From IMG/VR virus record IMGVR_UViG_3300031949_000001, positions 32,001 to 96,000 of that record: a stretch of DNA of 64,000 bases; one strand, given 5' to 3'. Position numbers and translations under genes: made by a program. Under the pieces are notes generated by a model. The model was not told where the DNA came from, did no database searches, and worked only from the letters and a program-made list of their open reading frames with translations. Numbering within the stretch: the first letter of the stretch is position 1; every line of letters starts with the position of its first letter. Below are positions 7,140-40,129 of the stretch, piece by piece. The stretch comes from a virus. Taxonomy: Duplodnaviria > Heunggongvirae > Uroviricota > Caudoviricetes.

Positions 7140-7168
7140 TTGACAAGGCATAAATAGTCTTGTATAGT
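7140..7168 (+). promoter_or_regulatory. sigma70 promoter of tRNA cluster 1 (late-type ATAAATA in spacer)
   Basis: TTGACA-17 nt-TATAGT. Confidence 0.8.
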
Positions 7169-7217: not shown

Positions 7218-7325
7218 ATGGTTACGCTTAAAGTCATCACTAACGCAGCAGAACATACATTTGCAGAGGCATTTACTGCCCCTGCGGAACCTGTTCGCGC
7301 CCTTGAGGATGGTCCTGGTGTGTAA
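7218..7325 (+). CDS. attenuator leader peptide 1, MVTLKVITNAAEHTFAEAFTAPAEPVRALEDGPGV
   Basis: TAAGGA RBS; 35-codon ORF whose 3' end covers the antiterminator strand. Confidence 0.75.
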   Translation: MVTLKVITNAAEHTFAEAFTAPAEPVRALEDGPGV

Positions 7326-7374
7326 GTAACCAAAGATCAACCAAAAAGGGCGCTTAGAAATAAGTGCCCTTTTT
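7297..7374 (+). terminator. attenuator: antiterminator GCGCCCTT (7297-7304) and intrinsic terminator (7343-7374)
   Basis: AAAAAGGGCGCTTA-GAAA-TAAGTGCCCTTTTT hairpin; GCGCCCTT is complementary to its 5' arm AAGGGCGC. Confidence 0.8.
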
Positions 7375-7377
7375 ATT

Positions 7378-7392
7378 TGCTCTTTTAAAATT
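7378..7392 (+). promoter_or_regulatory. boxA-like Nus antitermination site
   Basis: TGCTCTTTTAAAATT vs rrn boxA TGCTCTTTAACAATT. Confidence 0.6.
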
Positions 7393-22879: not shown

Positions 22880-22894
22880 TAAGAAATAAAGCGG

Positions 22895-22988: not shown

Positions 22989-23032
22989 GTCCTTATTTAT
23001 CGATGTCAAGAATCCAACCCGAGATGATTATC

Positions 23033-23061
23033 TTGACATTTCTCAAATAGAAGAGTAGAAT
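23033..23061 (+). promoter_or_regulatory. sigma70 promoter
   Basis: TTGACA-17 nt-TAGAAT. Confidence 0.7.
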
Positions 23062-23731: not shown

Positions 23732-23735
23732 AATG

Positions 23736-23810
23736 GGGTCTGTAGCTTAAAGAAGAAGCGGCGTGCTCATAACACGAGGAGTGTTGGTTTGAGTCCAACC
23801 GGACCCACCA
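23736..23810 (+). tRNA. tRNA-Met/Ile2(CAT)
   Basis: CGTG-CTCATAA-CACG; ACCA. Confidence 0.8.
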
Positions 23811-23821
23811 AGGAGAAATAT

Positions 23822-24301
23822 ATGGAATATAATATCGTACCAGACTATAACATCAAATACGAAAGGCGTATTTCTCGCTTTTGGGGATTTGATATCGATA
23901 AGGTTGAAAAACTTAAGAATGCTAAATTCGTTTGTGAAGTTGCCATTCGTACGCGAGGCGGAAGCTGGTCTGATAATCCTGTTGCTATCTTTTGGCAAGA
24001 AACGCCACCAGATTTGACCTACAGCAATTATTTCGGTTTGTTGGAGCAGATGGGTAGTCTGTATATCACAAGTGGTCAGGAAGCCGTAGAAGACGGCTTG
24101 ACGGGTATTGTTGCAGCCAATGGTGACGTAGTGTATAGTGCATATCGTCATGATTTTCGTTACAGCCCGGATAAAACTGTATGGATTGATGGAGGGCGAG
24201 ACTATGTTCGCTGTAGTGGTGCTGCTGCTGGTTTCGTCACTCTGAAGTTTGTTAAAGACAAACTAGTTGTAGATGGAATAGTAAATAGTGATTTGCAGTA
24301 A
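23822..24301 (+). CDS. hypothetical phage protein
   Basis: YRHDF...IDGGRDYVR; AAGGAG RBS. Confidence 0.7.
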   Translation: MEYNIVPDYNIKYERRISRFWGFDIDKVEKLKNAKFVCEVAIRTRGGSWSDNPVAIFWQETPPDLTYSNYFGLLEQMGSLYITSGQEAVEDGLTGIVAANGDVVYSAYRHDFRYSPDKTVWIDGGRDYVRCSGAAAGFVTLKFVKDKLVVDGIVNSDLQ

Positions 24302-24329
24302 CTAACCTAGAAGGAGTCGTAGAAATAAA

Positions 24330-24626
24330 ATGATTAACCCTAATGATCCAATTGACGTAGATGTTTTTGATGAAACAGACCACGCTCAATTGTTTGACCT
24401 AAATTGGACCGCAAAATCCATAGAAGACGTTAGAAATCTTGTTAAAACTAACACAATGTCACCGATAGAAATTGCCGTTCTGATAGCAAATAGTCCAGTT
24501 TTATGTGAAGAATGTGATGATCCAATTGATGACCGCCGAAGGCACTTAGAACCAGGAACAAAGCATTGTACCGATTGTCGCGAATTTTTAGATAAGAAAA
24601 CACGGTTGACAGGAATAACGCATTAA
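24330..24626 (+). CDS. DksA/TraR-type C4 zinc-finger protein
   Basis: CEECDDPI..RR...PG...CTDC. Confidence 0.7.
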   Translation: MINPNDPIDVDVFDETDHAQLFDLNWTAKSIEDVRNLVKTNTMSPIEIAVLIANSPVLCEECDDPIDDRRRHLEPGTKHCTDCREFLDKKTRLTGITH

Positions 24627-24647
24627 GCTATACTGCTTGCCCCGTAA

Positions 24648-25169
24648 GTGAATAAAGAAAAGGTTAAGGAAATGTTTAAGGTTGTAGAACATCTACGTCC
24701 ATATGCTCTAGTGTTAGTCGGTCTTCCTGGGACTGGCAAGTCTACTTTTGTCTCTCAACTCCCCCCACATTTCGTTGTTTTGTCTACTGACAACGTTATG
24801 GAGCGTCTGGCTAAGGAATTGGAAGTATCTTATAACGAAGCCTTCAATCTTGTTGGTTGGGAAGCGGCTGAACATCAGTATTACGAAGAATTTGCCGCTG
24901 CCACTGCGGCAGGTAAGGATATCGTTATCGATCAGACCAATGTGAGTATAAAGGTTCGTCGTCGTAAACTCTCACGTATTCCGGCTCACTACCACAAAGT
25001 AGCGGTTATCTTCACTCTTCCGGAAGATGTCCTGGCGGAACGGCTCACTGTGCGTGAAGCAAAGACCGGCAAGAAGATTCCACCACATATCATGGCGGAT
25101 ATGATCGAACGTTGGGAAGATCCAACCAAGGCAGAGGGCTTTGATAACATTGTTATTTTTAAAGATTAA
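24648..25169 (+). CDS. P-loop kinase (AAA_33/polynucleotide-kinase-like)
   Basis: GLPGTGKST, STD, IDQTN, EGFD. Confidence 0.8.
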   Translation: MNKEKVKEMFKVVEHLRPYALVLVGLPGTGKSTFVSQLPPHFVVLSTDNVMERLAKELEVSYNEAFNLVGWEAAEHQYYEEFAAATAAGKDIVIDQTNVSIKVRRRKLSRIPAHYHKVAVIFTLPEDVLAERLTVREAKTGKKIPPHIMADMIERWEDPTKAEGFDNIVIFKD

Positions 25170-25220
25170 AAAGAAAATATTATAAATACTCCCATAACCC
25201 AAATTTCGGGAGTTTAAAAA

Positions 25221-25580
25221 ATGATCAAAGCCATTCTTTCTTGTTTCGAAACAAGAATGAGAACATTTATAACCTTAATTTCGTTGATCACTGGATTGTT
25301 TGGAATTATTAGTGGTCTTTATTCCGCCGCCTCGTGGGCGGATTCTCGTTATGCTCATGCTGCTGATGTCAATAGGCGATTGGATGGTATACAACGGGAT
25401 AGTCTAATAATCCGCCGCCAACAACTAGACGATAAAATCTTCGAACTAAAACTCCAAAAACCGAAAACAGACGCGGTGCAAGCTTTGATCGAACGCTACA
25501 CAAACCAAATGCAGGCACTTGACGAGCAAATTACTAATATGATAGACTCACAGAACGCTAGCAATAAACCAAATCGCTAA
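25221..25580 (+). CDS. late membrane-anchored coiled-coil protein
   Basis: TATAAATA upstream; one TM segment plus coiled coil. Confidence 0.6.
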   Translation: MIKAILSCFETRMRTFITLISLITGLFGIISGLYSAASWADSRYAHAADVNRRLDGIQRDSLIIRRQQLDDKIFELKLQKPKTDAVQALIERYTNQMQALDEQITNMIDSQNASNKPNR

Positions 25581-25598
25581 GCAAGTTCTGGAGGTTTT

Positions 25599-25841
25599 AT
25601 GCCGATTCGAGAATATAAATGCTCAGATTGTGCCCACCGTTTCGAAACAATTCAAAAACTCAGTGATCCCGTCTTGACAAACTGCCCTAAATGCGGGCAT
25701 GATACGTTACTCAAACTGATATCTGCTGCGGGTTTTCAATTGAAAGGTACGGGTTGGTATAGCACTGATTTTAAAACACCTACTACTCTTCCTACTGTCG
25801 ATACTACAACAATCGTTGATAAACCACCCACACTAACATGA
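25599..25841 (+). CDS. FmdB-family zinc-ribbon protein
   Basis: MPIREYKCSDC...CPKCG...KGTGWYSTD. Confidence 0.85.
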   Translation: MPIREYKCSDCAHRFETIQKLSDPVLTNCPKCGHDTLLKLISAAGFQLKGTGWYSTDFKTPTTLPTVDTTTIVDKPPTLT

Positions 25842-26190
25842 TACAACTTTACACTATCCATAAGTTTATAAGAAACAAACTATTTAAAGCGCCATATAAT
25901 TCTTTGTCGGTAGAAGAGACGAAATATTATTCAATTCATCCAGTTGAATTGTATTATGAGTGTGTACGATTGGCACAGCTTCATTTATCTGAAATTCATG
26001 CCGCCAATCCAAGCACCAAATATTCATTATTGCTTGATAGATATACTGTCGTCTTTCGTCCAGTTGATAGTATAGAAAACGTAAGTAATTATCCAGGACT
26101 TGAACTCTTGGACGACGGTGATGAAAGATATGCTGTCGCTTGGTTGGTTGTTCCGGTTTTAAACAACGAAGAAATAAATGAAGAAGTCCC

Positions 26191-26219
26191 TTGACTTTTA
26201 GTTTCGGACTATATATACT
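26191..26219 (+). promoter_or_regulatory. sigma70 promoter of tRNA cluster 2
   Basis: TTGACT-17 nt-TATACT. Confidence 0.8.
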
Positions 26220-26295
26220 GTACAGACGTTGTTAATTCCGTTTGAATTAACTGGTGGAGGCGGTCTGGAAACCAGACGCCCTTTTGGAGATTAAA

Positions 26296-26376
26296 ATGTT
26301 TACAGCAACTCAGACAAAGCGTATTGCGAATGTGGTCGATAATCAAAGACCACAGGGGTTTTTCGTGTCTAAGTAA
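26296..26376 (+). CDS. attenuator leader peptide 2, MFTATQTKRIANVVDNQRPQGFFVSK
   Basis: GGAG RBS; 26 codons; 3' end covers the antiterminator strand. Confidence 0.8.
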   Translation: MFTATQTKRIANVVDNQRPQGFFVSK

Positions 26377-26426
26377 GCTGAAACTAAGCAAGCAAACATG
26401 AAAAGCCCTAGAGATAGGGCTTTTTT
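26355..26426 (+). terminator. attenuator: antiterminator (26355-26368) and intrinsic terminator (26401-26426)
   Basis: AAAAGCCCTA-GAGA-TAGGGCTTTTTT; GGGGTTTTTCGTGT pairs with ACATGAAAAGCCCT (14 bp, 3 G-U). Confidence 0.85.
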
Positions 26427-26446
26427 ATTTGTATGTTTTTGTTGAC

Positions 26447-26462
26447 TGCTCTTTAAAAATTT
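26447..26462 (+). promoter_or_regulatory. boxA Nus antitermination site
   Basis: TGCTCTTTAAAAATTT, near-identical to rrn boxA. Confidence 0.75.
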
Positions 26463-26584
26463 GGTAGCATATATAAGCTTTACTATCCAGTTTGTAGGAT
26501 GGGTAAGTGTTGTCACCGGCTAGTGGATAACCCTCGGGTCTTACGGTTAGCGTTGTGTTAACTGTTCACTAAAAGGAGATTATC

Positions 26585-26929
26585 ATGAACACATTTTACG
26601 GAAATTGGGGATGTAAAGAGGACGTTGCTGGCGATTTTGCTGTTGATATGAAGGCTTTGCGAGGAGTGAAGATTCTGTTCGCTTGGTATAGCTATGAAGA
26701 CTATTCTGGTTCGGCATTCGTGTTGTTTCAGAAGGGACGAAAGTTGTATGAAGTGCATGGAGGGCATTGCTCTTGTAATGGTCTGGAAGGTCAATGGGAA
26801 CCGACAGTAGTTTCAACCGCTGAGTTGTTGTATCGTTTAGAGAATGGGGAGTGTTACTATTTTCCGAGCGATCACAAGGACGAAATGGTTGCATTTTTGA
26901 AGGGAGGAATGAAAAGCAATCGTCAGTAG
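26585..26929 (+). CDS. hypothetical phage protein
   Basis: YEDYSGSAF...EVHGGHCSCNGLEGQW; strong RBS. Confidence 0.75.
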   Translation: MNTFYGNWGCKEDVAGDFAVDMKALRGVKILFAWYSYEDYSGSAFVLFQKGRKLYEVHGGHCSCNGLEGQWEPTVVSTAELLYRLENGECYYFPSDHKDEMVAFLKGGMKSNRQ

Positions 26930-26976
26930 TAACATGGTTTTGCTAGTTGTACCGGTACAAGAACAACTAGCATTTT

Positions 26977-27050
26977 GGTCCCTTGATGTAATGGTAACGT
27001 GCTTCGTTTACACCGAAGATTCAACAGTTCGATTCTGTTAGGGACTACCA
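26977..27050 (+). tRNA. tRNA-Val(TAC)
   Basis: CTTCG-TTTACAC-CGAAG; ACCA. Confidence 0.9.
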
Positions 27051-27055
27051 ACTAT

Positions 27056-27129
27056 TCCCGATTAGTATAATGGCAACACGCGCGCCTTGTAAGCTTGAAA
27101 TGAGGGTTCGATTCCTTCATCGGGAACCA
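27056..27129 (+). tRNA. tRNA-Thr(TGT)
   Basis: CTTGTAA loop, weak anticodon stem; ACCA. Confidence 0.75.
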
Positions 27130-27146
27130 AATTTAAGGAGGATGTC

Positions 27147-27314
27147 ATGGATCAGTCAGAAGATTTGGATTTATTTAGCGTAATGAAAATGGACCCACCT
27201 ACAGGTCAAATCTTCAAGCTGAAATTGGTTGAAAGATTTGGTAATGTAAAAACTGAGGAGGATGCTATGACACCGCTAAACGCAAATGGAAACGACACTA
27301 CGGTCTCCGAGTAA
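27147..27314 (+). CDS. small protein with gp23-like motif
   Basis: AAGGAGG RBS; MDQSEDLDLFSVMKMDPPTGQIFKLK... Confidence 0.55.
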   Translation: MDQSEDLDLFSVMKMDPPTGQIFKLKLVERFGNVKTEEDAMTPLNANGNDTTVSE

Positions 27315-27343
27315 TAGGAAAAACCGAAGATGATAAGGATGTA

Positions 27344-27598
27344 GTGTTCGGAAGTGATGTTTTTAATCTCTGTGATTCACAGGGGATGCCATTAGATTCA
27401 GTTCTAGATCGGCTAAAAGAAGATGAGAAGCTAGTAAGCTGGTGTGATTATTTCGAAGCTGGAGTTGATCATGGCTGGAAATGGGACCGAATCTTCAGCA
27501 TGATTGAATATTCTCTGGACGACATTTATGGAAGAGAGTATTCTGGAGAAGTGTTAAAGAGATTGAGGGTTTATATAAGAGGAAAATTAAATGTATGA
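27344..27598 (+). CDS. AlaRS helical-subdomain-like small protein
   Basis: GSDVFNLCDSQGMPLD resembles AlaRS G..AF.LYDTYGFP.D; start uncertain. Confidence 0.5.
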   Translation: MFGSDVFNLCDSQGMPLDSVLDRLKEDEKLVSWCDYFEAGVDHGWKWDRIFSMIEYSLDDIYGREYSGEVLKRLRVYIRGKLNV

Positions 27599-27885
27599 AA
27601 TCATTTTTATGGGAGTTGTTTTTGTGATAGGATGTGTTTTTGTGTTTTACCCGCGACATCCGAAAGGCGATTCAAGACGTAATTTAGAGTTTTTAGTAAT
27701 TAATAGTTTCTTTAAGAGACCAAAAGCGGCTGAGAAAAATTTAGATAAATTTGTTCGACAAAGACTTGAACAAATTTTGAAAGATGAAACGGATTGAAGT
27801 TTTACGTGGTCAGGAGAGTAAACGGAGAATGGGCACCGAAAAGCCTTTGAAGCTTAGTAGGAGATACCTCACCCGCCACATTTTT

Positions 27886-27960
27886 GGGACCGTAGTTCAG
27901 TGGTAGAATGCTACAATGACACTGTAGAGGTCGAAAGTCCGATTCTTTCCGGTCCTACCA
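27886..27960 (+). tRNA. tRNA-Val(GAC)
   Basis: CTACA-ATGACAC-TGTAG; ACCA. Confidence 0.85.
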
Positions 27961-28290
27961 ATTTGGAGAATAGTAATGATTTTAACGTTTAAGTGTAGAA
28001 ATTGTGGTTCGGATATAACCACAAAAGATTTCAAAGATAAAGTTGCAGAGGCTTGCGATTCTTGTGGTATTATTTGGGAAGCTAAACCAGATGGAACGGT
28101 TGAATTAGAACTGACGCAATTAGTTGGTGGTAAGTTCGGAGAAGATGGCGTGTGTGATAAGAGTTTACGCTGGAGTGTGTTTCCAGAAATACTACGGAAA
28201 GCTGTGTTGAAAGATGTGCGTGAAGAATTTTATGAAAAAGAAGTTCAGGTAATGGAAAAAGAAGATGCCTGGATGCGTAAGTAGTACAAT

Positions 28291-28367
28291 GGGAGTGTCG
28301 TATAACGGCTCATTACATTCGGCTCTTAACCGATAAAATTAGGGTTCAATTCCCTACGCTCCTACCA
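28291..28367 (+). tRNA. tRNA-Lys(CTT)
   Basis: TCGG-CTCTTAA-CCGA; ACCA. Confidence 0.9.
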
Positions 28368-28372
28368 AATTT

Positions 28373-28469
28373 GGGACAATAGTTCAAAAGTAGAACGGTA
28401 ATCTCGGCGTTCATAGACGTGTGATATTAGTCCAGACAGATACGGGTGAGAGTCCTGTTTGTTCCACCA
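28373..28469 (+). ncRNA. tRNA-like RNA with elongated anticodon arm (TCATAG loop)
   Basis: GGGACAA/TTGTTCC-ACCA; D- and T-arms present. Confidence 0.6.
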
Positions 28470-28477
28470 AAGTTTAA

Positions 28478-28548
28478 CTCCTGTCTGATGGACAGCATTT
28501 AGGTTGCGAGCCTAAATTGGGTCGGTTCGATCCCGACACAGGGGTCCA
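28478..28548 (+). tRNA. tRNA-Arg(GCG), truncated D-arm
   Basis: TTAGG-TTGCGAG-CCTAA; TCCA. Confidence 0.7.
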
Positions 28549-28789
28549 ATTTTTAAGGAAAGACAATGAATAAAGTGAAAATAGTGAAAGGCGAAAATTG
28601 GATTTTTTTGAACAATAAAGACACTGGATATGTTTTTTGTGGTGTTGAGGATGAATTTCCATCAGGATTAATTTTGGATTTAGCTTGGGCGCTTAAAGAG
28701 GAGCTAAAGAATGATAGGAGATTTTCAGAAGACGAAAAAGAAGCAATCCTCGATGAAGTAGAAAAACATGCTAGCATGATTATAGAAAT

Positions 28790-28864
28790 GGCTTCTTAGC
28801 TCATCGGTAGAGCGTCGTCTTGATAAGGCGGGGGCGGAAGGTTCGATTCCTTCAGGAGCTACCA
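28790..28864 (+). tRNA. tRNA-Ile(GAT)
   Basis: TTGATAA loop; ACCA. Confidence 0.85.
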
Positions 28865-29113
28865 GTTAACGGAGAGAAACATGACAGAGGAACCTAGTAT
28901 TTTTATTGATATTGTTGCGGAACCTACAAAATCGATTGTTTTGAAAAAGAATGGACCGGATTGGTTTACTCTTTGGGTTTGGGATATTGATCCAACCAAA
29001 CCGACTTGCTGGTGCGAAGGCGATTCGTATCACTTCAACGCAGAAATGGTTCAAGAAATTCAAATCTCGAAAAAAGATTCGCTTGACAAGTTAGGTGTAA
29101 AGTAGTACATTAC

Positions 29114-29184
29114 GCCCCTACCAAGGGATGGAGGCAGAACTTCTAATTCAGCCGTTGCAGGTCCGAATCCTGCTGGGGGTGCCA
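29114..29184 (+). tRNA. tRNA-Arg(TCT), degenerate D-arm
   Basis: GAA-CTTCTAA-TTC; T-arm; GCCA. Confidence 0.7.
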
Positions 29185-29641
29185 TTTTAAGGAGAGAAAA
29201 GATGTTTGTGAAACGATCCGTTACTTGGGAAGCTTTTGATAGAGATTGGTGTCCCACTTGTGTGAAGAAAGTTGTGATGAAACATATTCAGACAAACTTG
29301 CCGGGTATCGCTGCACAACAGTGTCCCGAATGTAAAACTGGTTATCAGGCAAACTACCTCGAAGACGGAGAGGATTTGTTGGATGTGCCCGAACATTTGA
29401 AATTCGAAGAGGTCTAAGGGAATATATGAGAACAAAGAAAACATATGCGTTAGATTTAGTGGATGATATTATTTCCGATTATTTTTACTATAACCGAAAA
29501 GACGATGATGTGTTGGGTCGAAATGATATGAAAGCGTTAATTGAAAGCGGCGAATTAACGGCTGATGAAATCGTTGAAAGGTTTCGTGAAGGTATTAATG
29601 ATGCTATGGCAAATTTCAATTTGCTGAAGTGAGAAGACTAA

Positions 29642-30088
29642 ATGAGTACTCTGGAATTTTGGGAAATTTTGGTTCCAACGACTCGTCCTGACGGGAGACC
29701 GATCAAGGTTCGTTACCACAAAGTTTGGGATAAAATGATCAATGGCATTGCCGGTGGTTGTACAGTGTTGAAACCAACCAAAGGCAAGTGGGTTGCTCCT
29801 GATGGGGCAATATTTGAAGAAAGAATGATTCCGATCAGGATCGGATGTACAAAAGAACAGATTGACATCATCATCGATTTGACCTTAGAATACTATGACC
29901 AGAAGGCGGTTATTGCATATAGAATCAGTAACGAAGTCATTCTGAGACATAGGAGCAGTCATGGTAAAGAGCGAATTGATCAAAAGATTGGAGCAGCTAA
30001 TAAAGCAGTGGAGAGAACCGACAGGTTGGATTGCACTGACGGGCTTGCACAACACCAGCAACGAGATGAAGGAATATCTCAGGGGTAA
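29642..30088 (+). CDS. hypothetical phage protein
   Basis: WEILVPT...G.W...ERMIPIRI. Confidence 0.65.
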   Translation: MSTLEFWEILVPTTRPDGRPIKVRYHKVWDKMINGIAGGCTVLKPTKGKWVAPDGAIFEERMIPIRIGCTKEQIDIIIDLTLEYYDQKAVIAYRISNEVILRHRSSHGKERIDQKIGAANKAVERTDRLDCTDGLAQHQQRDEGISQG

Positions 30089-30367
30089 GGAAGCGGCTGC
30101 TGAAGATTGTTCTAGAGATTTGCAGGATGTGATTGATGAAGCAAAAGACTGAACTCAGACTTTTGCAAGCGAATCTATGTGTCGATTTAGAAGGTAGAAA
30201 ATGAATAATAAATTACCAATTTTTTGTATCTTTTAATGCGAGACTACTTGCCAACTGGTGTGGTCTGTAGTATAATCGCCGAAGTTGAAAAAGTAAAAGG
30301 TGAGCCAGAGTTCACTAACAAAGAACTTGCTGAGATGGCTCAGCGATATAGTAAAGAGATAGACAAT

Positions 30368-30460
30368 TCCACGGTACTCTAATGGTAATGAGGACGCACT
30401 GTTAATGCGTTGCAATCCGTCTTGAACGGTATGGAGGTTCGAGTCCTCCCTGTGGAGCCA
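30368..30460 (+). tRNA. tRNA-Asn(GTT) with long variable arm
   Basis: ACGCA-CTGTTAA-TGCGT; U1-A72, G73; ~22-nt V-arm. Confidence 0.8.
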
Positions 30461-32421
30461 AAGCACACTAAAGAGAGCATGGTTCAATTCCATGCCAATG
30501 ACCATAAGCCTACGGGTAGCTGGTAGGAAGCATATTGGTGGATGCGACTTAGTGTAAGAATAATGCCGGAACACTACCGGTATGTAGGTATATGGATTCG
30601 GCGCCGAGATCTAAGTACTGAAAAACAAATTGTGGGCGGTTTCTGGTTCCCTCCCAGCCCAAAACCAGAACAATTTAATAAGGAGATACAATGAAAAACG
30701 TAGTTTATACTGAAAAAGAATGGATCAAAAGATGGAATGAGCTTGTTTTAAGTTCCAGTGAAATATTCTATCCAGCAGTAGTAGACGCCCCCGAAAAAAT
30801 GGAAGGTGCAATGTTCGTTGGAAATGTGGATCAAAAGACCAACATATTTGTTAAAAAATAGCATGAATGGAGAAGATAATGATATCAGGTAAAGAGTGGG
30901 ATGATGTAAACACGTTGTTATCTTTTTTGCGGTCTTCAAATGTTGTGAATCTTGTTGATGAATACTACAAGCAATACAACAACGAGGCTCCTGCCATGTT
31001 ACTATCTGATCAGATGGCGATAGTTCAGCGTGATTTGAATGCTGGAAGTAGAAATTAAATGGAAGAAATTAAAGTAGGTGATGCGTTTTTGGATTGTTGT
31101 TACCGTCCAGTGAGATGCACAACGATTGATGAAGAAGAGATTGAAGGTATTTCAATACTCGATGGAACTGAATGTTCTTGCAGCATAGCATATTGTGTAG
31201 TCAGTAAGATTAACGAGGAAGAAGTTCTGGCAACAGTAGCAGCTTTCGAAAAGGATGGAGAACGAGGTTTGATGCGACTTCGTGGTTGGACCGAAGAAAG
31301 CATTGACAACTTTATGAAGGAATGGCGCTAATGGCAACAATTAAACAACGTATTCCAAATTGGGCAGATATACCAGCGAAAACCTCAGAGTTTAACTCTT
31401 TGGAAGAATTGCTAAAAATAGATTTTGTGGAGCATTTCAAAGGTCTAAATAATTTTTATAGATATAGTATATCCAAAGAAGTTTATCAATTTCATAAATC
31501 ATCTTTCTTGATGTGTGAATTGGACGAAGGAAAAAAGTGGTGGGTGGTCGGTTTTCTTGATGATGCCGACGAATTGGTTTTGAAGCTTCCTAAATGGGAG
31601 CCAATTAACGAACAGGAGAGTAAAATGACATAGGTACCAGAGCAATTTGAAGACGCAATTATCGTGATTCACTACAACAAGGCTCATAATCAGGATCAAA
31701 ACATCCCGCCTTGGGTGGTGAAAGTGAAAGGTGAAAGCTACTATGTGTGGCACTTCACTGTGGAACCGGGAGTTGGATTTTCGTCTAAGGAAACACCGGC
31801 TAATCCCCACACTAAAGCATCTCTCAAATTTAAAGGGAATCTACGCTTTGAAGAAAATGAAGGTAAGTTAGAGGCGGTGATTTATGATGGGAAAACTGAA
31901 GGAAATCATCCTTCATGGTTGAATAAGGAAAAGAAATGACATTAGATAATGTAATGTGGATTGTATCGGCTTTGTACATAGGCGGATTGGTATTAATGCT
32001 ATACACGAAGCGGGGTCGTAGAATACTTAATAGATTAATTATTAAAGACGAGAAAGAGGGTTAATATGGAACTATTGTATGATGGAACGCTGAATAGACT
32101 TACGATTGAAAGCGTAAAAACCAGTATGGCAACTAACTCTTGTCCAGTAGAAGTTGATGTTGAAACTAATAAGTTTTGGGAAGCGTTTCAACCGTTTAGC
32201 AAGACAATCATGCGTCAGATTCGAGAAGTTTTGGAATACGGTGATGGTAGTCCTCGTATCTATAATGGTCCGAGTTATATAACATCACACAAGAATGATG
32301 AAGAAACAGTTTATTTTATTTTCTTTCGATTTGAAAGTGATAGGGATGCTTTTAAGGAACATTTCAAGCATCTGAAAATGAATTGTTCGCCGTTCAAAAC
32401 GGTGATTAAATAAGAGACAAT

Positions 32422-32687
32422 TCTGTTGTAGTTTAGAGGAAAGGAATTAGTAGTTAGTTGTCAAGATCAGGATATACATTGTTGAGCGAAATATTGGTAA
32501 CATCGCATTGGGCTTCCCAAAAAAACGTTGAGCCAGGGGTGGCGCCTGGACAGACCAGTATAGTACCAATAGACTTTTGAGACCTGTGAGCGACTAGCGA
32601 AGAACCGAGTACGTGGAAGAACACTGGCACCCAGCACAATGCGATTAGAGCCAGCGACGGTGTGTTCGAAGCCACCCAACAGAGCCA
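32422..32687 (+). ncRNA. 266-nt tRNA-framed structured RNA
   Basis: TCTGTTG/CAACAGA-GCCA acceptor; T-arm; ~180-nt D-loop insert; 21-nt anticodon loop. Confidence 0.7.
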
Positions 32688-32700
32688 ATTTGGAGGTAGT

Positions 32701-33210
32701 ATGGAAAATAATAAAAAATATCATTTGTTTTGGAACGGACCATTTAGTAACTGGTACCCATCCAATATCATAGTTGAAGGGGTTGCGTACAACTGCACCG
32801 AGCAACATATGATGGCTGAAAAAGCAAAGATGTTCGGTGATAAGGAAATGTATCAACGAATAATGATGTCCAACAGTCCAGCCGATCAAAAGGCGTATGG
32901 AAAGAAGGTTAAGGACTTTAATAAGATCGTATGGGAGACTTCTGCTAGAGATATTGTCTACAAAGGCAATCTATGTAAGTTTACCCAACATGCTGACCTC
33001 AAGGAATATATCCTCGGAACTGGTGACGACGTGATTGTAGAAGCCAGCCCATATGACGTGATTTGGGGAATTGGTCTTTATGAAACTGATAAACGTTGTT
33101 TAGATCCGAAGCAATGGAAGGGATTGAACTGGTTGGGTGAAGTGCTCATGCGCGTGCGTGATTGGATTAAAAAAGAACAAAATGGAGAAATAATAAATGT
33201 TAACAGTTGA
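32701..33210 (+). CDS. NADAR family protein (YbiA/DUF1768-like)
   Basis: FSNWY, EQHMMAEKA, KFTQH, EASPYDVIWGIG, GLNWLG. Confidence 0.9.
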   Translation: MENNKKYHLFWNGPFSNWYPSNIIVEGVAYNCTEQHMMAEKAKMFGDKEMYQRIMMSNSPADQKAYGKKVKDFNKIVWETSARDIVYKGNLCKFTQHADLKEYILGTGDDVIVEASPYDVIWGIGLYETDKRCLDPKQWKGLNWLGEVLMRVRDWIKKEQNGEIINVNS

Positions 33211-33407
33211 ATACTATCTTCCTGATGGAAGTTTCTTTTACGTAGATAAGATTACGGGACACGTCCCACAGAAGGGTGACAAGGTTGTTCATCCGTTTTC
33301 TCAACAAGCATTTTTTGTGAGAGAAGTTCCTGAGTTTTGGGTTGCAAGGCAGATGGTTAAGATTCAAATGAGCCAGCAAGCCAATGACCCAATGAATATG
33401 TAACAAT

Positions 33408-33481
33408 TGCCTCATGGTGTAATGGAAACATGTTTCGCTTTGAACGAAAAGTCCTCGGTTCGATTCCGAGTGGGGTTGCCA
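33408..33481 (+). tRNA. tRNA-Gln(TTG)
   Basis: TTTCG-CTTTGAA-CGAAA; GCCA. Confidence 0.85.
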
Positions 33482-33483
33482 AT

Positions 33484-33867
33484 TTATAGGATTTGAAAAG
33501 ACAACACGTGTCTTGCTACATCCTTCGAAGTATGGTCCAGGACGAATTGATGTTTGGCGCATCGCAATTGAAGCGGTAGTGCGTCGAGCGATCCTCCGGT
33601 TTGACCATTCAACATATTTAGAGTAACATGAAGGTCATGACTTGCGACAGCGTCGATGATCTTTAGAAAGCCTTCTATCCCGGCGTGTTCAACGATTAGT
33701 AGGATAGACTTACCAGCAAGATCGAGAAGGACAGTAAGAACCTGCATGGTGAATTTTGAGGTTTGATCTTCGTCTAGGAAAGCGCTTTTAACATGAACGA
33801 AGAATTTATCCGCACTATGGGGCGGGAGAATGTTGAGATCGAAATTTGACGGCTTAGGCGTTTCCAT
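33484..33867 (-). CDS. hypothetical late protein
   Basis: minus-strand GGAGG RBS and ATAAATA upstream. Confidence 0.65.
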   Translation of the reverse strand: METPKPSNFDLNILPPHSADKFFVHVKSAFLDEDQTSKFTMQVLTVLLDLAGKSILLIVEHAGIEGFLKIIDAVASHDLHVTLNMLNGQTGGSLDALPLQLRCAKHQFVLDHTSKDVARHVLSFQIL

Positions 33868-34187
33868 GTATAATGTCCTCCAATATGTGATATTTATCTA
33901 GAGGAATTTTATGTGGATTAAGGTTTGGCAACGGTGGGCGCACGGAGAATACAAGGAATCTTGTACCTATCATGAGGTTGAGGCTGATACTGACATCGAA
34001 AATGTTCTCGATTTTAAGAACCAAGCGAACGAATGGTCAGATAAGTATCGTGGATCATTTTACGAAGTCATTCAGTCACCACCAGAAAAATGGTTGAAAG
34101 TAGAGATTGAAAAACTCATTTTGATTGAAGAGAGTGCAATTAAGAAATCAAAGAGATACATAGAGTTGTTAGAGAAAATTTAATTAT

Positions 34188-34262
34188 ACCGTCATAGTGT
34201 AGTGGTCTGCACGTGAGATTGTCAATCTTAAAGTCGGGGATCATTCCCCCGTGGCGGTGCCA
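34188..34262 (+). tRNA. tRNA-Asp(GTC)
   Basis: TGAGA-TTGTCAA-TCTTA; GCCA. Confidence 0.85.
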
Positions 34263-34712
34263 AATTTAGGAGAAGAGAATGGATGATTTATTGTTTGTTT
34301 TGTATCGCATGCGCGGAGTTATTTCCTACGAAGAATTGAAAAATATGCCTGATGATGAAAGGCGAACTTTGGTGAGTTTCGTGAGGGAATATGGAAGAAT
34401 TTAAAATGTTTGCGCTTAAACTGGGCGAAGAAGTAACAATACGAATTTTGGATGTTCGGTACTTTGTACATAAGATTAAACCGATACTAACTCAACATTC
34501 AGCCGGAACACTTCCTGGGTGCCCGTTGTGCGAAGCTGGATATCCAGTAAGGATCAGATAAAAATGACGTTTAAGATAAAAACATACAAAGAAGCTTGTG
34601 ACGCTCTTGATACATCAAAGAGATCTTTTACTTTGCCAGTATATGATCATGTTAATGATGAGTGGTTAGTTGGTGAAGAAGATGTGAAACAAGAATGGAA
34701 AGATAAAAATTT

Positions 34713-34786
34713 GGGGCTGTAATTCAATGGTAGAATGCCCGTCTGTCCAACGGAGAACGAGGGTTCGATTCCCTTTAGTCCCGCCA
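34713..34786 (+). tRNA. tRNA-Asp(GTC)
   Basis: CCGT-CTGTCCA-ACGG; GCCA. Confidence 0.85.
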
Positions 34787-34801
34787 GATTTAGGAGGAAA
34801 T

Positions 34802-35194
34802 ATGGAATTAAAAAATCAAATTTTAAAAATTGCCGATGTTGCACAACGCAACGGTCATGTCTACACACAAGATGCATTGGAGAAAGCTGTAGATAATGCT
34901 CAAGAACGGATCAAGAACCAAGATGGTATCTTGGGTGTACTTGGTGAACCTAGAAATGAAGGTTCAATCGACATAGCAGAAATCAGTCATGCCATTACCA
35001 ATATCAGAATGGACGGTGACAAAATGGTTGCTGACTTCAAAATTTTGAGTACTCCAAAGGGAAACATATTAAGGCAATTGTTGGAAGCTGGTATTACTCC
35101 GCAATTTAGCGTTTCAGGTTTTGGTACTGTTGCTGAAGATGGTACGGTAAGTGATTTTGAATTGGTCACGGTCTATGCTAAATACCATGCGTAA
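34802..35194 (+). CDS. T4 gp21-like prohead protease homolog (short)
   Basis: RNGHVY...ISHAIT...ILSTPKGNIL..LLEAG...SVSGFG. Confidence 0.7.
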   Translation: MELKNQILKIADVAQRNGHVYTQDALEKAVDNAQERIKNQDGILGVLGEPRNEGSIDIAEISHAITNIRMDGDKMVADFKILSTPKGNILRQLLEAGITPQFSVSGFGTVAEDGTVSDFELVTVYAKYHA

Positions 35195-35198
35195 CAAT

Positions 35199-35273
35199 TC
35201 TCCTGTAGTTCAGTGGTAGAACGGCTGACTGTTAATCAGCGTGTCGGAGGTTCGATCCCTTCCTGGAGAGCCA
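35199..35273 (+). tRNA. tRNA-Asn(GTT)
   Basis: GCTGA-CTGTTAA-TCAGC; GCCA. Confidence 0.9.
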
Positions 35274-36279
35274 ACTAAGGAGCTATGTATGTCTATCAGA
35301 GTTAGAATAGTCGATGATGAAGTCCTGGAAAGTATTAGTCCAGAAAACCTCAGTGCTCATTTACATCGCACTGGTTGGATTCTTGGTGGCGTTAGTAGTT
35401 ACGGAACGTATTTTTATAAAGATGAATATGAAATAATGGTAGCAGAAAGATCGGCTCGTGATTTTAAAAATTTGATGTATATGATGTTTCAAGTTTTAGA
35501 AGAAGTTGAAGACCGATCACAATTAGATATTTGGGAAGATTTAAAATGAAAACAGCCAAAATGAGAATTACGGTAGAAGCTTTGTCGGATTTTCTCAAGA
35601 TTAGCGGTCTCAACATTTGGGTGACCGGTGGAAAAATGACAGAAGATCAAGATGATGTTATGGAATTGACGCTAGCTGGTTCCGGTTTACCGGAAGAGTG
35701 TGCTACCGATCCTAACAAGTTCATAATGATTTCAGTAACTGTGAATATCTTAGAATTCGACGGAACAGATGTTGGTGCAAAAATAACTCACGCAGATAAC
35801 ATTGATCTTTCGAAAGGATATTTGATTATCCCAGTAAAAAATGCTATATTGTATGGAGTAAGAGATAACGCATATTCGATGTAATGTTGAGAGGTTATAT
35901 GAACGCAAAAGAAGCAGCAGCAAAAGTCAGGAAATTAGAAGCAAAAGAAAGAGCAGAGGCTGCTGTGGTGGAGAAAGCTAGAGTAACGCGTGAAAAAAGT
36001 AGAGTATCCAATGCTTCGCGGTCTGCTAAAAAGTGGTTTGAAGGAAGCGTGACGGAAGCGATTACAAAAGCAGTTGAAGATAAATGCCGACAAACTGTAA
36101 TACCAGTTTATCCGAATTCAGAGGGCGGAAAAGCTGAAATACGAGCATTGCAAAAAATATTGCGTGCTAATGGATATACTGTTTCTGATGAAGCGTCTTA
36201 TAGCGAAGATATAGGACATGATCCTGATTGGGGTCATTACGATCATTCGTATCATTATTTAACAGCGTCGTGGTAAAAT

Positions 36280-36353
36280 AGGGGTGTGGTGTAATGGTAG
36301 CAAGGCTGGCTCTGAACCAGTAGGCGAGGGTTCGATTCCTTCCACCCCTGCCA
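36280..36353 (+). tRNA. tRNA-Gln(CTG)
   Basis: GCTGG-CTCTGAA-CCAGT; GCCA. Confidence 0.9.
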
Positions 36354-36423
36354 AAAGTAGTTGATTTTTCCTAAGACAAGGTGTATAGTACGAAACGCTT
36401 TGTTCAAAACTTAGGAGAGAAAC

Positions 36424-37326
36424 TTGAAAAATTTATTGCTTGTAGTTGGATTGCTTTTCCCGATGTTCGTAAATGCGGCTGACGGCGATGTCTATATCAT
36501 GTTCGGTGGACTCACCGGATTGGGTGAAAAGACATATGCTTATCAGGCTGGTTTCGACAGGAATGTTTCAGAAAATTTCTCGATTGGTGCTACGTATTAC
36601 AACGAAGGACACCTACCGAACGACCATCGAGATGGTCTCTCAGTTCAAGGTTGGTATGGTCTCAAGTTGTCTCATGATCTTGCTTTAAAGCTTGGTATTG
36701 GTCCGTACCTAAGCATGGACGGTAACTACAGCGGCACAGAAGTCAATCAAAAGGGTTACGGTATTCTGTCTTCGGTAGCTTTAAAGTGGTATCCGACTAG
36801 TTCTTCCTGGTATCTCAGAGCACAATACAACAACGTGCTTCTGGTTAATGGATACGGTTCAAATGCCGTGCTGTTGGGTATCGGAACCGATTACGAGAAG
36901 CGTAAAGCCAGTCTAGTACCAGATACTGAATTTGGTGTTTGGGGTGGTATCTCTAGAACAACGAACGCGAATACGAATAACGGTCTGGCTTTTCAGATCG
37001 AAGGTAAGCGCCCGATCAATGACTACTTGTCATACTCGGTTGCGTATCTTGACGAAGGTAATAATGGCAGCACAAACAGACAAGGTATTATGGGTCAGCT
37101 TTGGTTGGAAGGACATTCCGAGAAGTGGAATTATGGTGCCGGTTTTGGACCGTATCTAGCTTACGATAAGATGCAATCCGGTCCGAATCTTTTGGCTGCT
37201 GGTAGCTTCAGATTAACAAGAAATGTAACAAAGAGCACTCAACTTGGATTTACATATAACCGGGTAGTCTCGACATATAACCGAGACGCGGATGTATATT
37301 TGTTTGGTGGCTCAGTAAAATTTTAA
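36424..37326 (+). CDS. outer-membrane beta-barrel protein (two internal repeats)
   Basis: signal peptide; amphipathic strands; duplicated Y..EG....R.G...Q.W motif; C-terminal Phe. Confidence 0.75.
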   Translation: MKNLLLVVGLLFPMFVNAADGDVYIMFGGLTGLGEKTYAYQAGFDRNVSENFSIGATYYNEGHLPNDHRDGLSVQGWYGLKLSHDLALKLGIGPYLSMDGNYSGTEVNQKGYGILSSVALKWYPTSSSWYLRAQYNNVLLVNGYGSNAVLLGIGTDYEKRKASLVPDTEFGVWGGISRTTNANTNNGLAFQIEGKRPINDYLSYSVAYLDEGNNGSTNRQGIMGQLWLEGHSEKWNYGAGFGPYLAYDKMQSGPNLLAAGSFRLTRNVTKSTQLGFTYNRVVSTYNRDADVYLFGGSVKF

Positions 37327-37332
37327 CAATAT

Positions 37333-37406
37333 TGCCTCATAGTTTAACGGAAGAACAACACCCTTTGAAGGTGTCTGTCTTGGTTCGATTCCAGGTGGGG
37401 TAGCCA
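37333..37406 (+). tRNA. tRNA-Gln(TTG)
   Basis: ACACC-CTTTGAA-GGTGT; GCCA. Confidence 0.9.
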
Positions 37407-37417
37407 AAGGAAAATTT

Positions 37418-38203
37418 ATGTTTTGGGTATTACAGAAAAATCTTTACAATGAAGATGCTTTTGAGGAGCTTCTTCGTCAATTGGAGTTGCAAAACACTTC
37501 CTATCAAGTCGTCAGCATAATTCCATTCGCTCATGAAATGGAGCCAGATGTTAATCCCGAAGGTCATGTTATGACTCTTGGTGCTACATCAATGGCTAAA
37601 ATTTCGAAAAAGAAAGGATGGTTTCCAGGATACTTTGATGAAAATCTTCAGTATTCCTACCTTCTATATGCTTACCAAAAGCATATGCTAAACGCAGAAA
37701 GCGTTATTTACCCATTGCGTGAGCTTCCGAAGCTTTGGGATGAATTCTTCATCCGCCCGAACAATGATAATAAACAGTTTGCTGGATCGACCATGACTTG
37801 GGAGTATTTTGAAACATGGCGTCAAAATCTTATTGCCTTGGATGGTGAAAGTTCATTGACAACTATGACGGCTGATGATTTAGTTGTGATGGCACCGCTT
37901 CAGGACATTTACGCTGAATATCGTTTCTATGTAGTCGATGGAAAAGTTATCACCGGGTCTATATACAAGCGTTCTAATAGGGTGTACTATGTAAATATAA
38001 CGGAATATTCGGACCCTGAGTTGTGGCAGTTCGCTCAAAAGATGGTTAATTTGTGGAGTCCGAATCGTGCGTTTGCGCTGGATGTTGCGTTGACTGAGAA
38101 CGGCTATCATGTCCTTGAGATCAATGCTATCAACTCCGCTGGGTTTTACGCTTGTGACATGGGGAAGTTCATAAATGCGATCAATGGGATGGAATTCAAC
38201 TAA
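37418..38203 (+). CDS. ATP-grasp domain protein (DUF4343-like)
   Basis: FFIRP..D.KQFAG, EYRFYVVDGK, LDV...VLEINAINSAGFY. Confidence 0.8.
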   Translation: MFWVLQKNLYNEDAFEELLRQLELQNTSYQVVSIIPFAHEMEPDVNPEGHVMTLGATSMAKISKKKGWFPGYFDENLQYSYLLYAYQKHMLNAESVIYPLRELPKLWDEFFIRPNNDNKQFAGSTMTWEYFETWRQNLIALDGESSLTTMTADDLVVMAPLQDIYAEYRFYVVDGKVITGSIYKRSNRVYYVNITEYSDPELWQFAQKMVNLWSPNRAFALDVALTENGYHVLEINAINSAGFYACDMGKFINAINGMEFN

Positions 38204-38230
38204 ATATTCCTTATCCTCAAGGAGATTAGT

Positions 38231-38653
38231 ATGAAACTAGATGAAATTTGGAATTCTCACCCAAGACGCGGTTTCTCAGAAACATTTGATGTTGATCACA
38301 TAGCATTGGATTATGAATCTTTGGAGGATGATCCTCCTAACAGTCACAATATTAAAGCCTGGATGCCTGACATGCGTAACCGTCCAGACTATGCTGCCAA
38401 GTTTGAATACGAATATACACCCGCAGAGCGCGGATCACGTGAACGCGGTGGACTGCAATTGGAACCTGATTATGCGGCTGGTGTAGATATCACCGGAGCA
38501 CAGATTTACGATCCGCGTGTTAAACAGTGGATCGCGGTTGATCCGGAACTTTATTTTAGCAAGCATGCGCTTGAAAAAATAAGTCATGATGTCATGGATA
38601 GTTTGGAATACGCTCCTCCAGAGCGCGAGGATCGATACGAAGACGATTATTAA
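38231..38653 (+). CDS. acidic late protein
   Basis: CTAAATA upstream; MKLDEI N-terminus. Confidence 0.6.
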   Translation: MKLDEIWNSHPRRGFSETFDVDHIALDYESLEDDPPNSHNIKAWMPDMRNRPDYAAKFEYEYTPAERGSRERGGLQLEPDYAAGVDITGAQIYDPRVKQWIAVDPELYFSKHALEKISHDVMDSLEYAPPEREDRYEDDY

Positions 38654-38664
38654 TAGGGGGTTTT

Positions 38665-39003
38665 ATGTCTCGACTGCTGCTTGCTTTGATTTTGTTGGCT
38701 TCGACTACGTGTTTTAGCGCTTCTTCGGCTAATCTTTTGATTGACAAAAATTGTAAAATTTGGGGTGAGATTGCAAAGACGGTGATGCAGGGGAAGCGCG
38801 GAGGGCTTACAAAGGATCAGATTTTAGGCGATCTTTCAAACGGTTTAACTGGGCAAAAAATTAAGAAGGAAATCGTTGATTCTGTCCTATTGAATATGGG
38901 ATTGTTGTACGATCAACAGCCGAAATGGAGAGAACCACAAGAAATGTATGACGCGACATATCTAGCCTGCTGGGCGCAAGCATATACAAAGCAAGGTCGA
39001 TAA
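38665..39003 (+). CDS. secreted two-Cys protein (paralog family)
   Basis: signal peptide; C...KRGG...C pattern. Confidence 0.65.
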   Translation: MSRLLLALILLASTTCFSASSANLLIDKNCKIWGEIAKTVMQGKRGGLTKDQILGDLSNGLTGQKIKKEIVDSVLLNMGLLYDQQPKWREPQEMYDATYLACWAQAYTKQGR

Positions 39004-39005
39004 TC

Positions 39006-39338
39006 ATGAAAAATGTCTTGCTAACTTTGTTTCTTTTGGGTATAGTATCGGTCTGCTTCGCTGATGGGGGCGAAGTAAACGAAAGAGAATTTCAATGTTC
39101 CAAGATGGGACATTTAGCCAAGCAGATCGTAATCGACCGAGATGCTGGAACCCCAAAAGAAGAAATGATTGCTGAATTCACTGCACTTTATGATCAGATG
39201 TATGGTGAAAGTGATTTAAAAACAAAGTTATTGGAATATGTCGGTATCGTGTATGATGACAAGGAGGATAAGACTCCGAGCGCTGCCTATGCAACGCAAT
39301 ATACACGCTGTTTGACAAAAGGTTATTTTGAATATTAA
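39006..39338 (+). CDS. secreted two-Cys protein (paralog family)
   Basis: signal peptide; C...RDAG...C pattern. Confidence 0.65.
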   Translation: MKNVLLTLFLLGIVSVCFADGGEVNEREFQCSKMGHLAKQIVIDRDAGTPKEEMIAEFTALYDQMYGESDLKTKLLEYVGIVYDDKEDKTPSAAYATQYTRCLTKGYFEY

Positions 39339-39342
39339 GGAT

Positions 39343-39637
39343 TTGGTTAGCCAGATGATCGCTGTGAGAGTAATCTCATAGAAGAAAGTCGGGACTGCAC
39401 TGGCACAGCTTAGGAGTTAATGGCTCCCCACGGTAACGTGAGTGACGGCAACAGAGACGAGTCCGCATAAATAACATTTATGTGGGGTGAAACGGGCGAC
39501 AGCGTAGGTGCAGCAACTATAGACAGGGGGTGTTGATAGTGCCAGGGAGCCTCCGGGTAATAGGCAAAGATTTTAATGGCGACATTGAAACGAGACGAAT
39601 GATCATCCTCGATAGAATCCCGCTTACGTCTAACCAA
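39343..39637 (+). ncRNA. rnpB: RNase P RNA (bacterial type, compact)
   Basis: P1 TTGGTTAG/CTAACCAA; GAAGAAAGTCGGGAC and ATAGAATCCCGCTTA form P4; ACAGAGA and GTGAAACG conserved segments. Confidence 0.9.
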
Positions 39638-40054
39638 AAGGATTTTAAATGAAACTAAGAGAATTAGAAGAAGCAAAAGACCAAATGGCTTTGATTGTCG
39701 ATTGGATAGCTCAGCGTATCGTTCGAGAAGCTCAACAAGAAGCAGCCGTTGCTCAAGAAGTTAAAGGTATCGCTGCTGATAGTGCTATGCTTCATAAAGA
39801 AGCAAAAATGAAGTTGAAAGATTTGATGGATCGGGTTGATACTGAGATATATCACCTTATCTTCAAATGAGAGAATGTTGGGTCTGCTCCGAGCCCATTT
39901 TTGAATGTATGGGATTTGTAGCAGCCGGTGATTTGAATGATTTTTTGGAAGGTAAACGAACGTCGGTTCGTGAAACTTGTGGTGGTTGTATTTTACGTTG
40001 TATGTATGCGGAAGAGATGGGTTTACCCCGACCATTTCCGTATCCAAATGAAAT

Positions 40055-40129
40055 GCCTTCTTAGTTAAATGGATATAACACAAAACTACGAATTTTGAAT
40101 TACGGGTTCGATTCCTGTAGAGGGTGCCA
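40055..40129 (+). tRNA. tRNA-Arg(ACG)
   Basis: CAAAA-CTACGAA-TTTTG; GCCA. Confidence 0.9.

Follow-up and report, generated by a model that had tools for sequence, protein, structure and literature searches.

A candidate ribosome-mediated attenuator with leader codons matched to the downstream tRNA array in a giant phage genome

The tRNA-rich region and the parts of unit 2

The window, i.e., the whole 64,000-nucleotide stretch of DNA that was analyzed, comprises bases 32001-96000 of a 378,912-bp IMG/VR phage record and contains 39 of the 56 tRNA genes in the genome. An earlier note on this DNA had proposed that one of its tRNA arrays is preceded by a promoter (26191-26219), a leader ORF (26296-26376), an intrinsic terminator and a boxA, and that these together form a tRNA-sensing attenuator. 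All of these parts were identified in the sequence. The promoter consists of TTGACT, a 17-nt spacer and TATACT, the leader ORF has a GGAG, an ATG, 26 codons and a stop, the terminator has an 11-pair stem (26400-26425) followed by a T-run, and there is a boxA-like 13-mer, so called from its sequence, at 26447-26459. We refer to this locus as unit 2, and to two further loci in the same genome as units 1 and 3. The features of unit 2 and its surroundings are as follows.

26191..26219, + strand: sigma-70-type promoter (TTGACT, 17-nt spacer, TATACT), kept in the relatives L053, L054 and L048
26226..26295, + strand: 5' leader RNA with two predicted hairpins (26231-26251 and 26256-26284), near-invariant in sequence among relatives
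26286-26289, + strand: Shine-Dalgarno sequence GGAG, 6 nt ahead of the ATG
26296..26376, + strand: leader ORF, 26 codons plus stop (stop at 26374-26376)
26311..26349, + strand: putative regulatory run, codons 6-18 (12/13 read by the array, 11/11 anticodon types)
26355..26368, + strand: predicted antiterminator strand at the 3' end of the leader ORF, partner 26396-26409
26400..26431, + strand: intrinsic terminator, 11-pair stem (26400-26425), then a T-run
26442..26470, + strand: candidate second promoter (TTGACT, 17 nt, TAGCAT, with an upstream TG; 9/12 matches)
26447..26459, + strand: boxA-like 13-mer, invariant in relatives, with a twin at 7378-7390
26585..26929, + strand: 114-aa ORF 3' of the attenuator and ahead of the first tRNA, a member of a phage protein family
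26977..40129, + strand: tRNA array 2 (Val, Thr, Val, Lys, Arg, Ile, Arg, Asn, Gln, Asp x2, Asn, Gln x2, Arg)

The promoter is followed by a short ORF preceded by a ribosome-binding site, all on the same strand as the tRNAs and upstream of them, which is likewise the case in units 1 and 3, and an intrinsic terminator lies between the unit 2 leader and its tRNA array; this is the layout of an attenuator. The boxA-like 13-mer is identical at 12 of 13 positions to the Escherichia coli rrn boxA consensus. Only two sites within one mismatch of it occur in the 379-kb genome, each of them just 3' of an attenuator terminator; they head the two long arrays (units 1 and 2), and the motif is absent after unit 3, whose array is compact (1.7 kb). 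The candidate second promoter overlaps the boxA-like motif, and its first hexamer is TTGATT in L053. The family of the 114-aa ORF is found in many large phages, with some records labeling its members as integrase, probably wrongly, and the homolog in L004 (4001-4288) is likewise situated inside the tRNA array of another phage.

The tRNAs listed in the earlier note were all recovered by ARAGORN: Gln(CTG), Thr(TGT), Lys(CTT), Arg(GCG/ACG), Ile(GAT), Asn(GTT)x2, Val(TAC), Val(GAC), Asp(GTC)x2, Gln(TTG)x2 and Arg(TCT). One of these, Arg(GCG) at 28478-28548 (+), is an ARAGORN call that was not reported by Rfam. Adjoining it is a 94-nt tRNA-like gene (28373-28466, +) that is present in the Rfam results and was missed by ARAGORN, and several tRNAs of the window are unusual in length or anticodon, e.g., Tyr(ATA) at 10384. 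Promoter-like sites with 11/12 matches occur inside the array at 29862, 30248 and 33846; given these and the site at 26442-26470, some of the array may have transcription that does not depend on the attenuator.

Other RNA-related genes were identified in this genome. A class-A bacterial RNase P RNA (RF00010, 142 bits, E 3e-44) is located inside the tRNA array at 39343-39641 (+), with 299 nt relative to the 367 positions of the model; no such RNA was found in four other giant phages that were checked. An RNA ligase gene (48183-50318, +), interrupted by an intein with a LAGLIDADG endonuclease, adjoins a gene for a Thg1-like tRNA-His guanylyltransferase (47344-48174, +), and together with a kinase-like ORF (24648-25169) these suggest a tRNA repair kit. 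Outside the window there is a tRNA with a CTA anticodon (genome 268404-268479, -; called as Pyl by ARAGORN), which is also present in the phages G002-G005 and in Pectobacterium phage CBB. Such a tRNA would read the TAG stop, hinting at stop-codon suppression or recoding.

Codon match and predicted RNA folding of unit 2

Codons 6-18 of the leader ORF are CAG ACA AAG CGT ATT GCG AAT GTG GTC GAT AAT CAA AGA. The claim that these codons correspond to the anticodons of the tRNAs that follow was upheld, as the array can decode 12 of the 13 and each of its 11 anticodon types has a codon in the run. For a genome background we used 102,311 windows of 13 codons taken from 582 crude gene calls, none of which covered 11 anticodon types, while a single window covered 10 and five covered nine. 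A chance test of leader codons against anticodons had been suggested with the original claim; with 13 codons drawn independently at genome codon usage, the probability of the match is 3.1e-8 per window, and no gene window equaled it. We also scored unit 2 on its own at the amino-acid level under an array rule fixed a priori (same-strand tRNAs to the next unit or to the first gap of >5 kb), which gave p = 0.005. This rule extends array 2 to 46082, taking in Arg(CCT), Met and Ile. Where the array ends is partly arbitrary, as tRNAs for Arg(CCT), Arg(TCG) and Ser(GGA) farther downstream have no codon in the run. Nevertheless, chance cannot account for the match in unit 2, even if one allows generously for the post-hoc choice of codon window and array end.

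A second claim, that a 14-bp antiterminator in the 3' end of the leader is mutually exclusive with the terminator, was also substantiated. Positions 26355-26368 and 26396-26409 can form 14 contiguous pairs, three of them G-U, the helix and the 5' arm of the terminator use common bases, and none of 1000 dinucleotide shuffles of the 90 nt upstream gives a duplex as strong (p = 0.001). When transcription has passed the 5' arm of the terminator, this helix is predicted as the structure of lowest energy for the nascent RNA (-22.5 kcal/mol, z = -4.4), with 0 of 200 shuffles folding as well. When both conformers were folded for the full leader, as had been suggested, those with the antiterminator and with the terminator were nearly isoenergetic. 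In the trp three-hairpin design a 1:2 protector hairpin sequesters the antiterminator when no ribosome is stalled. On this point the folds of unit 2 differ: in the minimum-energy fold of the full-length RNA, the run pairs with the antiterminator strand and the terminator is formed, and in that of the ribosome-free nascent RNA, the antiterminator is formed.

The nascent transcript was then modeled with the footprint of a ribosome masked at each leader codon in turn. The antiterminator forms in these folds when the A site is at codons 1-17, is lost progressively from codon 18, and is gone from codon 20 through to the stop, so that the matched run, codons 6-18, ends at the modeled boundary. With the modeled ribosome halted at the very end of the run, on its last one or two codons, part of the antiterminator is already masked. 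The equivalent comparison for unit 1 has the matched run ending at codon 25 and the modeled antiterminator boundary at codons 24-25. In the model the antiterminator thus excludes the terminator and is available according to the position of the ribosome. Against shuffled sequences the antiterminator duplexes gave p values of 0.001 (unit 2), 0.009 (unit 1) and 0.001 (unit 3), and the Fisher combination over seven independent units, which includes phages described below, was 3e-9. Ranking terminators by the energy of the upstream duplex alone did not single out the attenuator units, because long weak hairpins in coding DNA also score high.

Sister units, relatives and other phages

Unit 1 lies on the same strand as unit 2, in the first part of the window, and has the following features.

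7140..7168, + strand: promoter (TTGACA, 17 nt, TATAGT)
7218..7325, + strand: leader ORF, 35 codons
7245-7292, + strand: matched run, codons 10-25, solely Ala, Glu, His, Thr, Phe and Pro
7297..7304, + strand: predicted antiterminator core, 8 nt, GC-rich, able to pair with the 5' arm of the terminator (p 0.009)
7343..7374, + strand: intrinsic terminator, 14 pairs
7378..7390, + strand: boxA-like 13-mer, twin of 26447-26459

All of the amino acids in the unit 1 run have tRNAs in the block that follows, and a stretch of equal length (16 residues) drawn from that set of amino acids was found in one of the 582 genes. The first tRNA, tRNA-His, starts at 7405, 30 nt past the terminator, and no promoter-like site was seen in the 14 nt between the boxA-like motif and this gene. 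Unit 3 is on the minus strand outside of the window (genome about 302144-302001), where it heads a minus-strand array of Lys-Lys-Leu-Leu-Trp-Tyr-Met-Met-Met-Arg. Leu, Lys, Trp and Tyr abound in its leader, and 13 of the 14 positions of its predicted antiterminator are paired with the terminator arm. A BLAST search with this minus-strand array returned only generic tRNA-Met matches. Units 1 and 3 are unrelated to unit 2 in sequence and alike in the order of their parts. Under strict wobble rules their codon matches are weaker, the best segment of unit 1 having 10 of 11 codons matched and unit 3 giving p = 0.03.

BLAST of the unit 2 locus against GenBank phages, in near and distant modes, identified no relative. 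IMG/VR searches with three neighboring proteins gave either no relatives or only distant ones, a protein search with a 40-aa extended leader had no matches, and the pattern of the 5' UTR was absent from the viral contigs searched. Relatives of unit 2 were recovered from metagenomes, and none of them departs from unit 2 in the DNA of the regulatory codons. This applies to four relatives, one of which is a contig whose flanking protein is only 43% identical and for which 61 nt were available. The tail of the leader has changed in a different manner: in L053 there are two non-synonymous changes, each of which converts a G-U pair of the antiterminator to a Watson-Crick pair, and in L054 a one-base insertion shifts the reading frame and moves the stop while 13 pairs are kept. 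The antiterminator helix therefore exists in three sequence variants, of 14, 14 and 13 pairs, all of which fold. It is apparent that the 3' tail of the leader ORF evolves as RNA rather than as protein. The upper stem of the L054 terminator is altered on both strands, with a remodeled hairpin and the T-run retained, and the boxA-like motif and the 20 nt that follow it are invariant among the relatives of unit 2. Close relatives of unit 2 also carry an insertion of ~150 nt between the promoter and the leader (L054 about 507-632), which holds a 41-codon hydrophobic ORF without a counterpart in the window.

Other giant phages were reached via their homologs of the Thg1-like protein. In total, about a dozen further places with a like design were found, comprising the sister units and units in four uncultured giant phages, a 10.6-kb viral contig and three cultured phages. 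When eight leaders were scored against eight tRNA sets (8 x 8) with the array rule given above, each independent leader was highest on its own set, and the related leaders of G003-G005 scored best within the sets of their own family. Such units also ranked top in an unbiased scan of 586 short ORFs ending <=700 nt upstream of tRNA arrays, which yielded a new unit on the 10.6-kb contig (L015) with 5/5 types covered and a terminator present. At the strict codon level the strongest units were G002_A, with 15/15 codons matched, and L015, with 14/15 codons and 6/6 anticodons; the leaders of G004 and G005 were not significant at this level. Under the a-priori array rule G005_B gave p = 0.15, owing to the fact that no tRNA-Tyr was detected in its array, while its G003 counterpart was significant.

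A scan of cultured phages gave four units. That of Xanthomonas phage XacN1 (46104-46229) is unannotated and covers 8/8 amino-acid types, its hairpin has no T-run, and the stop is followed 36 nt later by the start of a tRNA. In Ralstonia phage RsoM2USA there are two units, neither annotated, one of which covers 9/9 types, and the leader of Vibrio phage D69, annotated as hypothetical protein VPHD69_0165, covers 11/11 types. None of 2,000,000 random peptides scored as high as the leaders of XacN1, RsoM2USA (its best) and D69. Hairpin and T-run terminators follow the leaders of units 1-3, G002_A, the G003-G005 units, L015, RsoM2USA unit B and D69, and across the units the leader ORFs end 17-60 nt ahead of the terminator stem. 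The design is not universal among the tRNA-carrying phages examined. Pectobacterium phage CBB, which has a similar genome size and a Thg1 homolog, has no unit in its tRNA region, where the sole terminator near the tRNAs ends an ordinary gene. Neither KVP40 nor Atu_ph07 had a high-scoring leader, the power of the search being low in both because their arrays cover most amino acids, and phage T5 had no clean unit. T5 gene T5.072 (NC_005859 35617-35892, -) is a 91-aa ORF just upstream of promoter P14a and a Tyr-Glu-Trp-Phe tRNA cluster, and includes a short segment with a very high content of Trp, Glu, Tyr and Phe, which echoes the cluster without making up a clean attenuator.

G003, G004, G005 and L057 belong to a single family, in which the promoters are of the Bacteroidota type and each member has two arrays. 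Array-2 leaders of this family have codons for Phe, Asp, Val, Asn, Ala, Ser, Lys, Thr, Ile and Trp, in each case with the tRNA downstream, and lack Glu, Pro, Leu, Arg and Tyr, for which the tRNAs are upstream; Gly, whose tRNA is upstream too, is present a single time, in one phage only. In G003 the array-1 leader has 9/9 types of its own array (p = 1.5e-6), with 6 of its 27 residues fitting array 2. The earlier note had suggested that leader codons be compared with tRNA content in related phages, and here the correspondence was largely, if not entirely, retained: His is present in the array-2 leader of G005 only, the sole phage of the family with a tRNA-His downstream, and Cys is present in that of G004, which has a tRNA-Cys downstream, but the G005 run also has a Cys codon, and in this case no tRNA-Cys was detected. 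In G003 (L032 about 12306-12330) the array-2 terminator is followed within a few bases by a sequence like the first nine bases of boxA, and this resemblance is not retained in G004 or G005.

Proposed mechanism, alternatives and known systems

We consider unit 2 to be a ribosome-mediated transcription attenuator of a phage tRNA operon that would sense the decoding of its own codons, and give this reading, which draws on sequence and on folding models, a probability of about 0.8. Its regulatory codons are cognate to the tRNAs it would regulate, and the attenuator interpretation of the earlier note fits well with the architecture, the statistics, the replication both in the same genome and in unrelated phages, and the evolution of the locus. 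In outline, transcription would begin from the promoter at 26191 and a ribosome would load at the GGAG and ATG. If codons 6-18 were decoded quickly, the ribosome would move onto the last eight codons, covering or melting 26355-26368 as the polymerase made the terminator, which would then form and end the transcript at about 26431. If a tRNA were scarce, decoding of its codon in the run would be slow, and the ribosome would wait upstream with the antiterminator strand free to pair with 26396-26409, so that no terminator would form and the polymerase would read into the array. There the boxA-like site would probably load host Nus factors, enabling the polymerase to cross a long and largely untranslated array. 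Unit 2 would thus combine about 11 tRNA species in the manner of an OR gate, and the tRNAs made would speed decoding and restore termination. Because what is regulated is the very set of tRNAs by which the run is read, the negative feedback would be direct. That the leader is translated, which way and how strongly read-through responds, that Nus factors load and what serves as the physiological trigger are all matters that we infer. As more tRNA does not cure starvation for an amino acid, shortage of tRNA seems the more sensible signal, and such a shortage could stem from host shut-off, tRNA decay, codon demand or a tRNA-cleaving defense.

It is feasible that the correspondence between leader and tRNAs is real and that the switch is not of the trp type, acting instead through access of Rho, through processing or stability of the tRNA precursor, or with the opposite sign. 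The XacN1 unit would suit this explanation, as its codon-matched ORF is followed by a hairpin without a T-run and by a tRNA 36 nt past the stop, and so would the boxA-like motifs, which point to control of Rho or elongation, the preference of ribosome-free nascent RNA for the antiterminator, and the untidy thermodynamic models of G002_A and G005_B. We nonetheless judge it unlikely, since canonical hairpin and T-run terminators follow the leaders named above, the complementarity of the antiterminator is significant and is preserved by one-sided changes, and the leader ORFs stop 17-60 nt before the stem, too far away for a translating ribosome itself to block the hairpin. Much the same distance led us to reject a coupling attenuator of the pyrBI type, as the ORFs end well before the terminator. 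A T-box riboswitch was also rejected, there being no Rfam T-box match in 22000-42000 at E up to 1.

An appreciably less probable explanation is that the terminator serves as an insulator which stops upstream transcription, with 26442-26470 driving the array constitutively and the ORF being incidental or encoding a small protein. The TG-extended promoter-like site is directly 3' of the terminator, and short genes with their own promoters and terminators are common in phage early regions. However, this would leave the codon match, the matched leaders in unrelated phages and the antiterminator all unexplained, unit 1 has no promoter-like site between its terminator and tRNA-His, and the tail of the leader peptide is not conserved as protein. 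That an ordinary small hydrophilic ORF merely happens to resemble the tRNA list and was picked post hoc we regard as scarcely credible: the codon window and array end were indeed chosen after the data were seen, and p for unit 2 alone is 0.005, but the match has a probability of 3e-8 per window, no gene window equals it, and there are about a dozen independent replicates scored by rules fixed beforehand.

To our knowledge, essentially nothing is known of how phage tRNA genes are regulated. The debate on why phages carry tRNAs has weighed codon usage, decay of host tRNAs and escape from anticodon nucleases, and has had no regulatory handle. We think it possible, at somewhat less than even odds, that codon-barcoded attenuators represent a general and modular means of on-demand control of tRNA arrays in phages of several bacterial phyla, responding to shortages that include those caused by tRNA-cleaving defenses, and coupled in the present phage to antitermination of the Nus type. 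With each array headed by a leader that lists its own tRNAs, a phage would then replace exactly those host tRNAs that run short. If correct, phages would gauge decoding speed codon by codon and respond by making the tRNAs that match, attenuation by leader peptides would apply to tRNA genes as well as to amino-acid operons and would there involve direct feedback by the product, the leaders would delimit phage tRNA operons from sequence alone, and the units would be natural multiplexed sensors of tRNA availability.

We found no published account of a codon-matched attenuator of a tRNA array in the full-text literature, a search in which most subscription journals were outside the coverage and older work could be missed. 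The XacN1 genome paper nowhere mentions a leader, terminator or attenuator (PMC5852040). The presence of units in the cultured phages XacN1, RsoM2USA and Vibrio D69, and of sigma-70 promoters, makes the proposal directly testable with standard reporters.

The amino-acid leaders of enterobacteria have the same parts as the phage units, i.e., a promoter, a short leader with regulatory codons, and an exclusive antiterminator and terminator, with a stalled ribosome leading to read-through. Those of thr (Thr and Ile codons) and ilvGMEDA (Ile, Leu and Val) respond to more than one amino acid, and others include trpL, hisL, pheL and leuL. They control biosynthetic enzymes, whereas the phage units would control tRNAs, so that, unlike in the amino-acid operons, the product itself would relieve the stall. 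The codons also differ, the phage runs having single codons for 5-11 tRNA species in place of tandem repeats for one to three amino acids, and the phage units differ further in having the antiterminator strand inside the 3' end of the ORF and a boxA-like site (in units 1 and 2) after it. The pheM leader of E. coli pheST monitors how a single tRNA is faring in decoding and has a component of the translation machinery under its control, and is alike in both respects; it differs in being specific for one amino acid and in regulating a synthetase rather than tRNA genes. T-boxes similarly sense the status of tRNA and choose between antiterminator and terminator upstream of translation-related genes, although a T-box contacts a single tRNA itself, by means of a specifier codon and the T-box sequence, and no translation is involved. 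The rrn boxA/Nus system shares with the phage loci a 13-mer (12/13 identical to the consensus) early in a long, largely untranslated RNA operon. The phage site differs in standing after a conditional terminator, and would therefore be transcribed only by polymerases that have passed the attenuator. The mechanism class is that of the classical leader-peptide attenuator, within which the leader of pheST and the thr and ilv leaders, the latter two multivalent, come closest in logic. What is new is that the regulated genes are tRNAs, that single codons for as many as 11 tRNA species are strung together like a barcode, and that the unit is found in phages and followed by a boxA-like site.
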